Part shown: piece after piece, positions 25-50,385 of the stretch | Position numbering within the stretch: position 1 is the stretch's first letter | Layout of the letters: every line of letters begins with the position of its first letter | DNA from: Octopus vulgaris | Taxonomy: Eukaryota | DNA: 64,000 nt | NCBI GenBank assembly: GCA_951406725.2 | Contig: OX597832.1 | Span: 1,550,001-1,614,000 of the forward strand | Reading direction: 5' to 3' | The notes under the pieces: generated by a model | The model's input: the letters and a program-made list of their open reading frames with translations, nothing else | Told to the model about the DNA's origin: nothing | Databases searched by the model: none | Translations under genes and position numbers: made by a program

Positions 25-59
25 GTTTCTGACGAAGAGCTCCGCTCTAAACGTTAAAC
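25..59 (+). ncRNA. Minimal type I hammerhead ribozyme, probably inactivated (G12->U)
   Basis: GTTT-CTGACGA-A-GAGC tcc GCTC-(T)AAAC-GTT-AAAC. Stem I GTTT/AAAC, stem II GAGC/GCTC, palindromic stem III AACGTT. The GAAA box reads TAAA. Confidence 0.6.
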
Positions 60-139
60 CTTCCTTCTTTCCTTCTTTCCTGAGCGTCCAATAATACCAT
101 ACTTGTTCCACGTCCTCGCGTTGTTGTGTTTTCTCTTAT

Positions 140-590
140 AGTAGGAGTGGCTGTGTGGTACGTACCTTGCTTACCAACCATATGGTTCCGGATTCAGTTC
201 CAGTGCGGGGCACCTTGGCCAAGTGTCTTCTACTATAGCCTCGGGCCGACCAAAGCCTTGTGAGTGAATTTGCTAGACGGAAACTGAAAGAAGCTTGTCG
301 TACATATGTATATATATATATATATATATATATATATATATATATATATATATATATGTATATATATATATGTACGTGTGTGTATATGTTTGTGCGTTTG
401 TGTTTGTACCCCCAACATCACTTGTACCCCCAACATCACTTGACAACCGATGCTGGTGTGTTTACGTCCTCATAACTTAGCGGTTCGGCAAAATAAGTAC
501 TAGGCTTAAAAAGAATAAGTCCTGGGGTCGATTTGCTCAACCAAAGGCGGTGTCCTACCATGGCTACATTCAAATGTCTGAAACAAAAAA
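140..590 (+). mobile_element. tRNA-derived SINE family A (CORE-like domain, internal TA/TG microsatellite)
   Basis: A-box-like GTGGCTGTGTGGTA, B-box-like GGATTCAGTTCC, CACCTTGGCCAAGTGTCTTC. Colinear with the copy at 1283-1692. Carries an 18-bp tandem duplication at about 405-442. Confidence 0.85.
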
Positions 591-1282
591 ACCTATATAT
601 ATATATATATATATATATATATATAGATAGATAGATAGATAGATAGATAGATATAGATATACACATACATAAAAATATAAACAACACAAGTAACACGAGG
701 AGGAGATAGATAGCCGACAACTGATGAAGGGTCGTTTCTCTGTGTTTACATGGCCCGTTTTCCATTTTTTCTCCAATTGTGTACGTATTTAATTCCTTCA
801 CCCACTTATTTCATGCTGTCCAGGTAAATCTAGCTGAAGAAGACAAATAAAATTTACGATAACAAACGTATTGGAAGAGTCCCAAACCTAGGTACTGGTT
901 TATCCGATTCTGGGTTGTCCATTTATCTAATGTTCTTCCTAGAAGTAAGACAAAATTTTTTTGTTTGCTGTCCGCACACATCTTAGCCAGTATATATACA
1001 GTGGAGCTTTAATATAGCGTCGTAAATGTATCGACTGTTATTTCCAATAAACACTGGAGCCATGTTGTACCACTACTGTCTCTCTCACTTTCTCTCTCTC
1101 TCTCTCTCTCTCTCTCTCTTATATATATATATATATATATATATATATATATATATATATATATATATATATGTATGTATTATATATATATATATATATA
1201 TATATATATATATATATATATATATATATATATATATATATATATATATATATACATACATATATATATTATTCATTGCATA

Positions 1283-1692
1283 TAGGCGGAGTGGGTGTGT
1301 GGTAAGTAGCTTGTTTACCAACCACATGTTTCCGGGTTCAGTACCACTGTGTGGCACCTTGGGCAAGTGTCTTCTACTATAGCCTCGGGCCGACCAAAGC
1401 CTTGTGAGTGGATTTGGTAGACGGAAACTGAAAGAAGCACGTCGTATATATGTGTATATATATATATATATGCGTGTGTGTGTTTGTGTGTCTGTGTTTG
1501 CCCCTAGCATTGCTTGACAACCGATGCTGGTGTGTTTATGTCCCTGTTATCTAGCGGTTCGACAAAAGAGACCGATAGAATAAGTACTGGTCTTACAAAA
1601 GAATAAGTCCCGGGGTCGAGTTGCTCGATTAAAGGCGGTGCTCCAGCATGGCCGCAGTCAAATGACTGAAACAAGTAAAAGAGTAAAAGAGT
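1283..1692 (+). mobile_element. SINE family A, full length
   Basis: GGGTTCAGTACC B-box, CACCTTGGGCAAGT, central (TA)n/(TG)n, (GAGTAAAA)n-type tail. Confidence 0.9.
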
Positions 1693-46399: not shown

Positions 46400-46930
46400 T
46401 TCTCTGTTGAGACACATCTGTTTTCTCGACTTTCTGAATCAAACGATGAAAATCGCCTCGAATAATTTAAAACCATATTCTACTTGAAAATTGTACAAAA
46501 GTATTTTTTCAAGTATTTCCTGTAGTGACTTTGATGAAGCTACTAAATAGGATATTGCAGAATTAAGGTAGAGGTTCTTTCTCCTTGTAGATTTCCAAGA
46601 TAACCCTTTTCTATCAACACAAGCCCATTGCTCAAATATCTTTGTCTGTTGCAATTGTATCTTCATCTATTGGTTGGATCATTGAGGTAAAATTGGTTGA
46701 TCAGAACATCCACCTTATTTTACCACCATAACTGATAAATTGGTGAACATTTAGATGAGCAGTTGTGTTGTCAAAAATTAGTGACACCTTCAACTCCAAC
46801 AACAGAAACTTGAACGAATTATCAAAGTATATTGTCAGGTTAAGAACCTTGAAAATAAAACTTTGCTTCGTGTAGAATATGCTCCAAATAACCCAACTAG
46901 TTTGGATAATGTTCAAATAACTCTTTGGAT
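46400..46930 (-). mobile_element. pogo/Tigger DDE transposase remnant
   Basis: KVSLIFDNTTAH...WMF*STNFTSMIQPIDEDTI, resembling the pogo consensus LLILDNAPAH..FLPPNTTSLIQPMDQGII. Confidence 0.65.
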
Positions 46931-47454
46931 TCAAAGCAGCAACAAGTGAAAACAACCAGAATGAACTGTGTGTTTGTATTAGTGTGTGTGTGGTGGTTGT
47001 GGGGGGGGGGGGGGTAAAACAGTAATGCGGCTACGGACCAATCAGGCCGGAGCTTATTCTGGCTTGGGAGGCGTTTAAAGAACTGAAAGCACAACATTTT
47101 CCTTTGAGTATGACGCTAGGCCCTCGCCGGCTTAACCCTAAACTGCCGCTGAAATTCCTTTTTAGCGGTGTATAGTGGAGTAAAGTGAAGTTAATTGCCT
47201 TGAAAAGAACGCAATACAACACAGGGTTCAGGAATCGAATCCCGACTTAATGATCATCAGTAAGTCACAAAAATGAATCAATGGCTGACAGTTTCGTGTG
47301 TACCCTGCACGAAACACTCGGCCCGTGAGTTTCTTTTGTAAGGTTCTGTAGGCTAAAAAGAATAAGAAAGTAAATGCATGCTCATGTATTGATTTCCATT
47401 TCTTCAGTTTGTTCAACCAAACACACACGCACACACAAACACAAACATACACTC

Positions 47455-48180
47455 ATATCTTTTATTGTTTAATTATTTCAGTAATTTGAGTGCGACCATG
47501 CTGGTGCATAGCTTTGGATGATTTTAGTCGAACAAATCGGTCACAGGTTTTTTTAAAGCCTAGTACTTATTTTATCGGTTACTTTTGTCGAACCGCTAGG
47601 CTACGGGGATGTAAACACACCAGCACTGGTTACTCAACGGTGGTGAAAGATAAACACGCACACAAAGACATTTAACATGGACAACTAGCAAAATTATAAC
47701 TTTAAATTATACCACATATAGTTACATTTACATAGTTTTATGAGCTTAAATTTAGAACTATATCTAAATTGCCTATTAATTTTTAAATTGTCACTTATTT
47801 CAATCATTGGACTGTGACCATGCTGGGGCACTGCCTTAACGTGGTTAGTTGAACAATCGCCCCACCCTTACTTTTTAACTTCGGAACTTATTCTTTAGGT
47901 CTCTTTTGCCGAATCATTAAGTTATAAGAACGTGAACAAACCAACAGCAGCCGTCAAGCGGTGGTGGAGACGACAAACACTCGCGCGTGTACACACGCGC
48001 ACAAACACACATATATACGACAGGCAGCTATACAGTTTTCGTTACCCAAATTCATACACTAGTCATTGATCTTTCCCAGATTATAGTCGAAGTCTATTGC
48101 CAAAGGTACTGTGCAGTGAGGCTGAATCTAAAACTGCTTGGTTGTAAACAAAGCTTCTTAGCCTCACAACCATGCCTACT
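47455..48180 (-). mobile_element. Two diverged SINE A copies (about 47455-47660 and 47795-48180)
   Basis: TAGTACTTATTTTATCGG..GAACCGCTAGG; GACCATGCTGGGGCACTGCC..TAGTCGAAG..TGCCAAAGGTAC. Confidence 0.7.
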
Positions 48181-49104
48181 CCCTAAACTTTATCACATAA
48201 AATACATCAATGAATAACTCAGTATCGCAAATGAATGAAACATCGCTTAATTATATTGTACGATCAGCTGCTCACATGAATGAACTTAATTTGGTTATCT
48301 ATAGTTGGGAAAACTTGGCCTTCCAGAATAAAGTGCCAGCACTGTTGATAGAGTACTTGAGGGTTATCAAGCTTTCATTGTAATCACGTGTTTGGATGGG
48401 ACACTCATGAAAAGAAATATTTCAAATCTTTCAGTTATGGTGCATTGGCAGATTATCAAGATTTACCGAGGTTTCTGATGATCTAACATAAAATTTATAT
48501 ATTTTACAATCAGATTAAATCTGATTTATTCTAGATATTCTGAATGAGGAGTTGTTTCCCAGAAGTGGTTCAACCACTTTATTGATTATAAAAGTTCGCA
48601 CTGTCATTACTGATTAATAATCAGTGAGCGACGAGAGTAGCGTTGTTAACAAATAACTACAAATAATATCAACACGAAGAATGCATGCATACTCTAGAAT
48701 ATCATTTTCTTTTTAAAAAATCGATAAAAATATTTCTCATATTGTTTTGATAACGTATTCGCAAGACTATATTTGTATCTTCGACATTAAAGTAGATTAG
48801 AAATAAATTAACAGATATAAATAATGCACCTGAGCCAATGAGTATGTTTCTCTGCTGTTGCTCGACCTGCTAGAAATAGTAACCAAATCTCCCTCACATC
48901 ACACCGTCTCAATAAAGTGCACATTAAATACTGTTGTCTGACTATCTGTATTCATAGCTTCATTCCATCAAGACCAATTTAGATTAAAGAAATGTGTTTG
49001 TTTTCCATTCCTCAAGAAATTCGATTCCTTTATCTTAAGAAAGTGAAACATGCTGTTTAAAGGATTTTTCTCATCGTTATAAATATCCATCAACGAATAT
49101 AAAT

Positions 49105-50385
49105 ATCTCGTTTTTGGATTTGGTTTGCAAGATTCTTTATGTGAGTTCGTGTGTTGAAGCATATTCTGTTGTGTCTGGGGAGCGTCATTCTCTTTTTGTG
49201 CCTTATAATTTAACACACTCACCAGTAAAATTTCCACTTATTTCTTATTTTTATTTTTCTAAAATTTTCGTTGCATCTTCCAACCTTTTCTATAGTCGTT
49301 GACTCTGTCCGTTATTCAAGCAGCGTTCATTTTGTTTGTGTGCATGTGTGGGGGTTAGTGTGTGTGTATGTGTGTGTGTGTGTGTGTGTGCATACACATG
49401 CATGTATGTTTGTGTTTGCATGTATTTATGTATTTATGTATGTATGTGTGTACATTTGTATGTATGTATTCTGCATATTCATGTGTTGCGTGTCCATATT
49501 TGTGTGTTTTTATGTATGTGTGTGTGCTTGTATATGTGTGTGTGTGTGTACCTCTGTCTCCTTGTGTGTGCGTGTCTGAGTGTGTGTGTGTTTTGCAACT
49601 ATACTAAATAGGAAATATACATAGTAGATATCATACCCCTATACCCAGAGTTTACACAGGTAGAGTAGAATAGTTAGTAGGCTGTTATGTAGATAGACGT
49701 ATGTATGTGTATGTGAGAGAGTGTATGTATGTATATATGTATATGCACATGTATGTAAGCATATGGATATGAAAGTAAACAAATCAACATACAGACGGTT
49801 AGGTACTTAGGTTATATGAACAGACAAGCACACATATGCAAATGAAGACTGAAACACATGACCATATGTACACACACACTACTTCACACAAAGACACATA
49901 TGGAGACACACGACTACAGATATGGAGATGTACGTCCATACATACCAACACAGTACATAGTTGTAAAACGCACGTACACATATACACACACATTCATACA
50001 TACACATACAAGGAGACAGAGGTACACACACACACACACATATACAAACACACGCACATACATAAAAGCACACAAACACGAACACGCAAACACATGAATA
50101 TGCAGAATACATACATACACATATACATACATAAATACATGCATACACGCACATGCATACATACATACGTACATGCATGTGTACGCACACACACATTAAC
50201 CCACACACATGCGAAGAAACAAACAAAAAGTAATGCAGTGTGAATAACGGACAGAGTCAACAACTATTGAAAAGGTTGAAAGACGCAACGAAAATTTTAG
50301 AAAAATAAAAATGAGAGGAAATCTTACCGGTGAGTGTGTTAAATTATATGGTACTAAAAGAGAATGACTCTCCCCAGACACAATA
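49105..50385. repeat. Large inverted repeat: two diverged copies of one element, arms about 440 bp
   Basis: About 49165-49605 versus about 49955-50385; shared landmarks include GTGTCTGGGGAG, GTTGACTCTGTCCGTTATTCA and TACCTCTGTCTCCTTG. Confidence 0.88.
50264..50300 (+). ncRNA. Putative minimal hammerhead with a U3-A8 core
   Basis: CTA-TTGAAAA-G-GTTG aaagacg CAAC-GAAA-A-TTT-TAG. A degenerate mirror copy lies at 49259-49296 (-). Confidence 0.45.

Follow-up and report, generated by a model that had tools for sequence, protein, structure and literature searches.

Hammerhead ribozyme motifs, Penelope-like elements and ORF-less tandem repeats in a 64-kb stretch of the Octopus vulgaris genome

Why do eight hammerhead ribozyme motifs with differing stems lie within 64 kb of the Octopus vulgaris genome, and which elements carry and move them? 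We addressed this question for positions 1,550,001 to 1,614,000 of contig OX597832.1 (assembly GCA_951406725.2), the whole 64,000-nucleotide stretch being referred to here as the window. A sequence-only reading had proposed eight unrelated type I hammerheads in it, belonging to a large and diverse population of non-autonomous elements that favour TA microsatellites and are possibly mobilised by Penelope-like elements (PLEs). The explanation that fits best, and most probably the right one, is that the sites represent eight families with hammerheads near the 3' ends of PLEs, or of derivatives of PLE pseudo-long terminal repeats (pLTRs) that lack an open reading frame (ORF), inserted into (TA)n by a Hydra-type endonuclease/reverse transcriptase (EN/RT), with the ribozymes cutting mainly as dimers.

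Hammerhead families in the window and in the genome

The sites, numbered 1 to 8 along the window, have their first core base at 29+, 2308-, 5853+, 6876-, 38359-, 44524+, 45386+ and 50267+. All of the motifs and stem III strings quoted in the sequence-only reading are present, but the coordinates that it gave are edges of nearby regions. Absent from it are an inverted twin of site 4 at 6884+ and, at 49108-49355, the decayed second arm of the site-8 family. Every site is a member of a multi-copy repeat family, with at least 775, 847, 194, 955, 2252, 2525, 1571 and 1261 first-look matches for sites 1-8 and ~40 or more scored matches per site. Both core boxes are intact in 16/25, 25/25, 14/30, 24/25, 29/30, 25/25, 28/30 and 12/15 best-hit loci, respectively, a set that includes the window copy, is biased toward the query and in part overlaps the same arrays. 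Seven families present the CUGANGA and GAAA core with a UH cleavage site and paired stems I and II, and stem I is open-ended, the type I arrangement. These seven C3-G8 families form seven separate nucleotide clusters, and at this level the description of the motifs as unrelated is borne out. Site 3 represents the oldest of them, and cores are mostly intact in the young families.

Two window copies are mutated in the core, site 1 by TAAA in place of GAAA, found in 5/47 family copies, and site 5 by an A9-T change seen only in the window copy; these defects are therefore not family-wide. The site-1 family also includes an apparently successful subfamily in which U4 is changed (CCGA for the core CTGA in 12/47 copies). 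Pairing is maintained through sequence change: a stem II pair of site 3 is G-C in 21/30 and A-T in 7/30 copies, a double change, and stem III of site 2 is self-complementary in 24/25 loci through four sequences of two lengths (ACCGCGGT in 10 loci, ACCGTGCGGT in 9, ACTGATCGGT in 3 and ACCGATCGGT in 2, with one broken). The palindrome sequence varies between families too, and five perfect or near-perfect palindromes of 8-10 nt have computed self-pairing energies of -6.5 to -16.6 kcal/mol with little or no hairpin.

Site 8 lacks CUGANGA and reads UUGAAAA-G-GUUGC-loop-GCAAC-GAAA-AUU-U with a 3-bp stem I. Its UUGANAA core recurs in 12/15 loci, 6/15 of which pass the full descriptor described below; the unpaired base and G10.1-C11.1 pair are as in published minimal motifs, and the motif lies near the element end. 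From its sequence, site 8 is rather likely to be a weak U3-A8 hammerhead variant, a less firm assignment than that of the other seven families.

Motifs were sought with a descriptor comprising the core and stems I, II and III. An earlier, stricter version found 1-3 sites in the window, compared with 0.03-0.47 in 30 shuffles. The second version tolerates an unpaired or mismatched first stem II position and the U3-A8 core, as described in PMC4209133, and gave 6 window matches against a mean of 0.19 and a maximum of 2 in 100 local dinucleotide shuffles, a figure that is optimistic because this descriptor was tuned after inspection of the window; independent sequence is the real test. Five of the eight window copies pass (5853, 6876, 44524, 45386 and 50267), and the sixth match, at 37706 (+), a U3-A8 type whose stem II has 3 bp and whose loop is 89 nt long, is probably due to chance. 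The failing copies are 29+ (TAAA), 38359- (CTGATGT) and 2308- (2-bp stem II base).

The independent sample comprised 100 10-kb stretches at 20-Mb intervals along contigs C1-C15 (1 Mb) of the 2.8-Gb, 227-contig genome, which is rich in TA, CA and TAT microsatellites. It holds 27 C3-G8 motifs, compared with a mean of 1.2 in 10 shuffles (~20-fold excess), and stem III is palindromic in 22 of the 27, compared with a mean of 0.5 per shuffle. A descriptor blind to stem III likewise returned palindromes in 11/17 real matches and in 1/10 pooled from 10 shuffles. Across 1.9 Mb of examined sequence, 322 C3-G8 matches form 44 clusters, 20 of which occur in the random 1 Mb; a few of the 44 are probably chance. 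A density of ~25 motifs per Mb would correspond to an estimated ~70,000 descriptor-passing motifs in 2.8 Gb, with a range of ~45,000-105,000 from Poisson error alone that paired copies widen. The large, diverse population with palindromic stem III claimed in the sequence-only reading is therefore upheld, as is the expectation that its density exceeds that of shuffled sequence. The window is not clearly a special hot spot, with 4 C3-G8 matches against 1.7 expected from the sample (P ~0.10).

The elements that carry the sites

The features of the window that bear on the question are as follows (+ and -, strand; cuts are predicted).

1..136 (+): site 1, 3' part of a ~220-bp family resembling short interspersed nuclear elements (SINEs), the element beginning ~63 bp left of the window; minimal hammerhead with core 29-35, stem II GAGC/GCTC behind an unpaired A, stem III ACGT, G12 = T in this copy and a cut between 55 and 56.
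2022..2378 (-): site 2, 5'-truncated ORF-less ~455-bp monomer flanked by TA tracts; core 2308, stem II base just 2-3 bp behind an A-A mismatch (2 bp in this weak copy), stem III ACTGATCGGT, cut between 2243 and 2242.
5474..6132 (+): site 3, older ~555-bp partial-tandem element with a complete hammerhead; core 5853, stem III ATTGCAAT, cut between 5904 and 5905.
6746..6885 (-): site 4, very young 140-bp copy beginning at stem I, 3' end on (TA)n; core 6876, 4-bp stem III with an 8-nt near-palindromic loop, cut between 6838 and 6837.
6882..6948 (+): inverted fold-back arm of site 4, with a second hammerhead core at 6884.
7169..7345 (no strand assigned): fold-back 3' fragment of the site-8 family, without ribozyme.
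38245..44335 (-): broken PLE with Hydra-clade motifs and site 5 in its 3' pLTR; core 38359, stem III ACGATCGT, A9 = T in this copy, cut between 38282 and 38281.
41540..43922 (+): unrelated non-LTR retroelement (long interspersed nuclear element, LINE) fragment within the PLE ORF (RVT_1, E 3e-6).
44336..44860 (+): site 6, an almost complete ORF-poor monomer of the 559-bp unit, which meets the 5' end of the PLE head-to-head and has its own 3' end on (TA)n; core 44524, stem III ACGTACGT, cut between 44568 and 44569.
44985..45645 (+): site 7, 5'-truncated 3' untranslated region (UTR)/pLTR belonging to another PLE family; core 45386, stem I made up of 2 bp, an internal loop and a further 7 bp, stem III ACAGCTGT, cut between 45490 and 45491.
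49108..49355 (-): arm of the site-8 element in inverted orientation, its core decayed.
50199..50391 (+): site 8, older family and likely U3-A8 variant, forming an old inverted pair with the preceding arm; UUGAAAA at 50267, stem II GTTG/CAAC, extended to 5 bp in the majority of copies, 3-bp stem I, stem III AATT, cut between 50297 and 50298.

Sites 5 and 7 lie in 5'-truncated or broken copies of autonomous PLEs whose families combine an RT, a C-terminal GIY-YIG endonuclease and a hammerhead in the pLTR, as in EN+ PLEs. In the window PLE, the N-terminus lies near 44218, RT pieces at 39987-41540 (DKT, YRDD) are recognised by motif, Pfam RVT_1 giving no match to them, and these are followed by a CxCX5C linker and a GIY-YIG at 38978-39496 without CCHH. 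The segment 44212-44335 is an upstream pLTR end plus tail, and site 5 sits ~40 nt from the element's 3' end on (TA)n. The site-7 copy is 94.6% identical over 661 bp to one whose RT/GIY-YIG ORF ends 2.4 kb upstream. Both families include partial tandems, tails and inverted 5'-truncated copies, with an inverted second ribozyme in 5/30 loci each. The CxCX5C linker, DKT, absence of CCHH, CxxC and CxH motifs and (TA)n target all point to the Hydra clade; the first Cys of CxxC is altered in the window PLE and intact in two other copies (L210 and L211). A link between the hammerheads and PLEs, as had been suggested, is supported; the 38245-44335 copy that had been put forward as a possible mobiliser is broken by the LINE and by frameshifts and therefore cannot itself fill that role. 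Its coding region also holds a (TAT)n expansion at 39558-39879, a poly-Asn linker whose length varies in other copies. A fixed 5' end for site 5 was considered and dropped, as 14/29 copies begin within 45 bp of the query edge and the others are spread over 1 kb.

Members of the site-4 family are 99-100% identical and carry a fold-back arm in 22/25 loci. The fold-backs concentrate at the 5' edge of stem I through several different junctions, some of them double (a query-biased set, L116-L140), and the inverted arm carries its own copy's N7 variant in 21/21. All 25 best-hit loci begin at stem I, which first suggested a 140-nt element whose 5' end is fixed; this reading of site 4 was downgraded because the query itself began there and a sister subfamily extends 80 bp to >1.2 kb further upstream in 11/14 loci. 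A search free of that bias, made with only the 3' part, gave no matches and is uninformative. This sister subfamily is probably the 3' end of an autonomous PLE. TG/TA microsatellite-like stretches are common to the long 3' UTRs of three families, those of site 7, of site 8 and of the site-4 sister (L330, L334, L207 and L191), and some apparently flanking microsatellites are therefore internal to the elements.

The units of sites 2 and 6 (~455 and 559 bp; longest ATG frames 39 and 102 amino acids; GC content 0.38 and 0.335) are ORF-less, low in GC, arranged in tandem and provided with one type I hammerhead each, as in non-LTR retrozymes. Arrays comprise 11 units plus an inverted copy (L213), 15 cores (L215) and 4 units (L221), those of the site-6 family having 11 and ~15 units, and a second direct copy lies within 1.5 kb in 11/25 (site 2) and 12/25 (site 6) loci, several of which overlap the same arrays. 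For both units an identical junction recurs on many contigs; array 3' ends fall at two AU-rich monomer positions per family, abutting (TA)n, and the arrays carry inverted 5' pieces that cross the monomer junction. The site-1 SINE-like family has 12 copies, in 12/100 of the random 10-kb stretches, and most of 21 incidental copies share a 5' start, as read by eye. The description of the carriers as non-autonomous elements is thus right only in part: sites 5 and 7 belong to autonomous PLEs, sites 2 and 6 form ORF-less tandem arrays, site 3 is a partial tandem, site 1 is SINE-like and site 8 is an old inverted pair. It is likely that the short ORF-less elements derive from PLE terminal repeats. 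Possible origins of the arrays include rolling-circle copying of a ligated unit, copying of multimeric transcripts and local unequal crossing-over.

Other repeats accompany these elements. At 1771-1864 lies a hairpin that has no ribozyme and matches 3' flanking sequence from a ninth hammerhead family (L036, L116). An abundant SINE-like repeat, presumably with a tRNA-like head, occupies 137-560, 1285-1690, 2566-2890, 3140-3390 and 3930-4065, one copy cutting the site-1 3' end. A large non-LTR retroelement at 29135-33359 (-), which we take to be L1/Tx1-like, has a 565-amino-acid RT frame (RVT_1, E 1.8e-30). The hammerhead-like words CTGATGA and GAAA in the LINE 3' UTR (43745-43870) were rejected as a candidate; they do not follow hammerhead order, and nothing is unusual about the fold (z -0.49).

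Probable insertion at TA tracts and competing explanations

A (TA)5 tract lies within 300 nt downstream of 21/27 sample motifs and upstream of 6/27, against a background of 21%, in agreement with the preference for TA microsatellites that had been proposed. At the 3' ends, which lack poly-A, TA follows directly on AU-rich sites of fixed position, 5' truncation is variable, and inverted 5' pieces form same-family head-to-head junctions (77 counts, overlapping loci included). Together, the TA polarity, variable truncation and same-family inversions fit target-primed reverse transcription at nicked (TA)n, and the two 3' end positions match the expectation from two RT start sites (PMC11167929). 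Joints between different families are also seen: the PLE/site-6 joint at 44335/44336, without a TA tract, is the only distinct heterologous one found by script, and L078, read by eye, has a site-1-like arm joined head-to-head to a PLE, likewise without a TA tract. Co-insertion from two RNAs is a possible origin, the joints being too rare to judge.

In the mechanism that we propose, a GIY-YIG nick in (TA)n would prime reverse transcription, which would start at one or two AU-rich sites 40-330 nt 3' of the ribozyme. The RNA template would be uncleaved at the copied site, because genomic copies run through it, and premature stop or fold-back of synthesis would give the short and inverted copies. 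A self-complementary stem III would not close within one molecule but would pair between two copies, and cleavage is therefore predicted to be confined to tandem or paired transcripts, from which it would release unit-length RNAs; these may circularise and lead to multi-unit insertions. Cutting as a monomer may be possible for site 4, whose 4-bp stem III is a real one. For the 455- and 559-bp families a more specific proposal, to which we assign somewhat less than an even chance, is that they are circular RNAs formed through dimer hammerhead cleavage and copied repeatedly by a Hydra-clade RT at nicked (TA)n, each event depositing up to ~15 units and an inverted 5' piece.

A different account would treat all eight sites as 3' fragments of autonomous PLEs and the arrays as local products of unequal crossing-over, not as mobile units. 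This is true of sites 5 and 7, as it probably is of the site-4 sister subfamily, a local-expansion route is discussed in bioRxiv 10.64898/2026.07.22.740005, and such expansion predicts the pattern seen in three arrays, with ~1 substitution within and ~3-8 between arrays. As a general account it nevertheless appears unlikely, given that the same junctions of the 455- and 559-bp units recur on many contigs, that array 3' ends on (TA)n are of element type with inverted 5' pieces spanning the monomer junction, that a fourth array of ~15 units is not homogenised (6.2 substitutions within), and that most incidental site-1 copies share their 5' start. Still less probable, and in our view a slim chance, is that the short families are hammerhead SINEs or retrozymes moved by another retrotransposon such as a LINE, their TA context reflecting a microsatellite-rich genome. 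LINEs are common in the window, the last 186 bp of the window LINE fragment also stand alone between TA tracts elsewhere (L063:2285-2470), and by background alone a (TA)5 tract is expected nearby in 21% of cases; against this, the TA association is polar, the 3' ends lie at fixed AU-rich sites without poly-A, and the head-to-head inversions follow the PLE pattern.

That the motifs are chance matches or catalytically inactive relics is very improbable. An Rfam scan of the window (E<=1) gave no hammerhead family among 103 matches, nearly all of them hits of miRNA models to microsatellite hairpins; three of the window copies do not pass the descriptor, the site-8 motif is weak, and most genomic copies are probably dead through neutral decay. 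These points are opposed by the excess over shuffles in independent sequence, by palindromy that emerges without being asked for, and by compensatory changes between subfamilies, which leave the chance or relic explanation standing only for activity and for site 8.

Several observations weigh against the PLE-based explanation that we prefer. U3-A8 motifs number 8 in the 1-Mb sample against a shuffle mean of 4.7, with 11 in one shuffle, and therefore show no clear genome-wide excess; the AAUU duplex of site 8 is unfavourable (+2.2 kcal/mol). Lowest-energy folds of several window copies differ from the hammerhead fold (z-scores -4.4 to +0.8), published PLE hammerheads cleave weakly, and 8/9 Xenopus retrozyme dimers gave no cleavage (bioRxiv 10.64898/2026.07.22.740005). 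The Pfam GIY-YIG score of the window PLE is 21.4 against a cut-off of 22.6 (E 3e-4), its RWK motif is inexact (RRIKWI), and the placement of the site-5 and site-7 elements in the Hydra clade is a putative one, made by motif. Five families, those of sites 1, 2, 3, 6 and 8, gave no sequence connection to an autonomous parent PLE: a same-strand PLE ORF within 1.5 kb upstream was found in 1/19, 0/25, 2/22, 0/25 and 0/14 of their loci, respectively, and in the match inspected (L007) other repeats separate the ORF from the element. The link for the site-4 sister subfamily is a Hydra-type endonuclease that lies upstream in 1/14 loci, with a microsatellite-like stretch between.

Relation to known systems and significance

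The idea is not new, having been anticipated by Craig et al. 2021 (PMC8557442), by Cervera and De la Pena 2014 (PMC4209133) and by Li, Clavereau and Pollet (bioRxiv 10.64898/2026.07.22.740005). Hammerheads in PLEs, stem III palindromes, cleavage as dimers and the origin of retrozymes from PLEs have all been published before. The PLE motifs of PMC4209133 resemble those described here in the type I fold within the terminal repeat, the short stem I, the unpaired base after A9, the palindromic stem III, the U3-A8 core variant and the opposite-strand pairs, as well as in the many consensus families per genome, mostly as single truncated copies. Dimer cleavage is treated in the same paper and in PMC6765202 (citing Lunse et al.). 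Unlike those motifs, stem III palindromes of 8-12 nt are common here, and the estimated load of ~70,000 compares with a top count of ~9,000 in Xenopus tropicalis, the descriptors of the two studies being different.

The Hydra-clade EN+ PLEs of PMC8557442, whose TA preference is treated in its section 11, share with the octopus elements the C-terminal GIY-YIG without CCHH, the CxCX5C linker, DKT, CxxC and CxH, canonical hammerheads and (TA)n insertion. The elements here are longer (~3.7 kb minus the LINE, and one family with a 2.4-kb 3' UTR), and RWK is inexact; that paper reports few families outside cnidarians. The Anolis Poseidon PLE studied in vitro (PMC11167929) shows AT-rich cutting, two internal RT starts giving a tail, and an uncleaved RNA template, the last in keeping with octopus copies that continue across the predicted cut; it belongs to another clade, its ORF begins inside the hammerhead, and its cleavage is protein-dependent.

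Metazoan non-LTR retrozymes share with sites 2 and 6 a tandem arrangement of low-GC monomers that lack an ORF and contain a single type I hammerhead; they range from monomers to multimers, and a non-autonomous status as derivatives of PLEs has been proposed for them, as here. At 455 and 559 bp, the octopus monomers exceed the 150-450 bp of Cervera and De la Pena 2020 (PMC7229834) and fall within the 51-972 bp of bioRxiv 10.64898/2026.07.22.740005, where a PLE origin is argued from co-occurrence and sequence likeness in 35 species, none of them a mollusc. Two features of the octopus arrays, the inverted 5' copies of PLE type and the pair of fixed 3' ends on (TA)n, were not found in the available parts of these retrozyme accounts. 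The literature searched, which left out most subscription papers, yielded no cephalopod hammerhead census; related elements may be among the hammerheads that PMC8557442 and PMC4209133 tabulate by family and species in their supplements. The octopus repeat annotation PMC13282606 reports 31 recently active PLE families, and the available portion of its main text does not use the words 'ribozyme' or 'hammerhead'.

What is new here is the density, the Hydra-type link and the presence of young tandem families suited to a direct mobilisation test. With the basic phenomenon known, the value lies in scale and testability, not in surprise. The results suggest that the hammerhead load of this genome ranks among the larger ones so far reported in animals, and part of the 'unclassified SINEs' of repeat pipelines may be PLE-end derivatives. 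Two wider questions are touched, the role of hammerheads in PLEs and the enzyme that moves animal retrozymes, and since 99%-identical tandem families with PLE hallmarks occur beside young Hydra-type elements, the octopus offers a practical system for both. If the circular-RNA proposal is true, a live retrozyme and candidate partner enzymes would be present in one genome, and the role of the ribozyme in PLEs would become directly testable.

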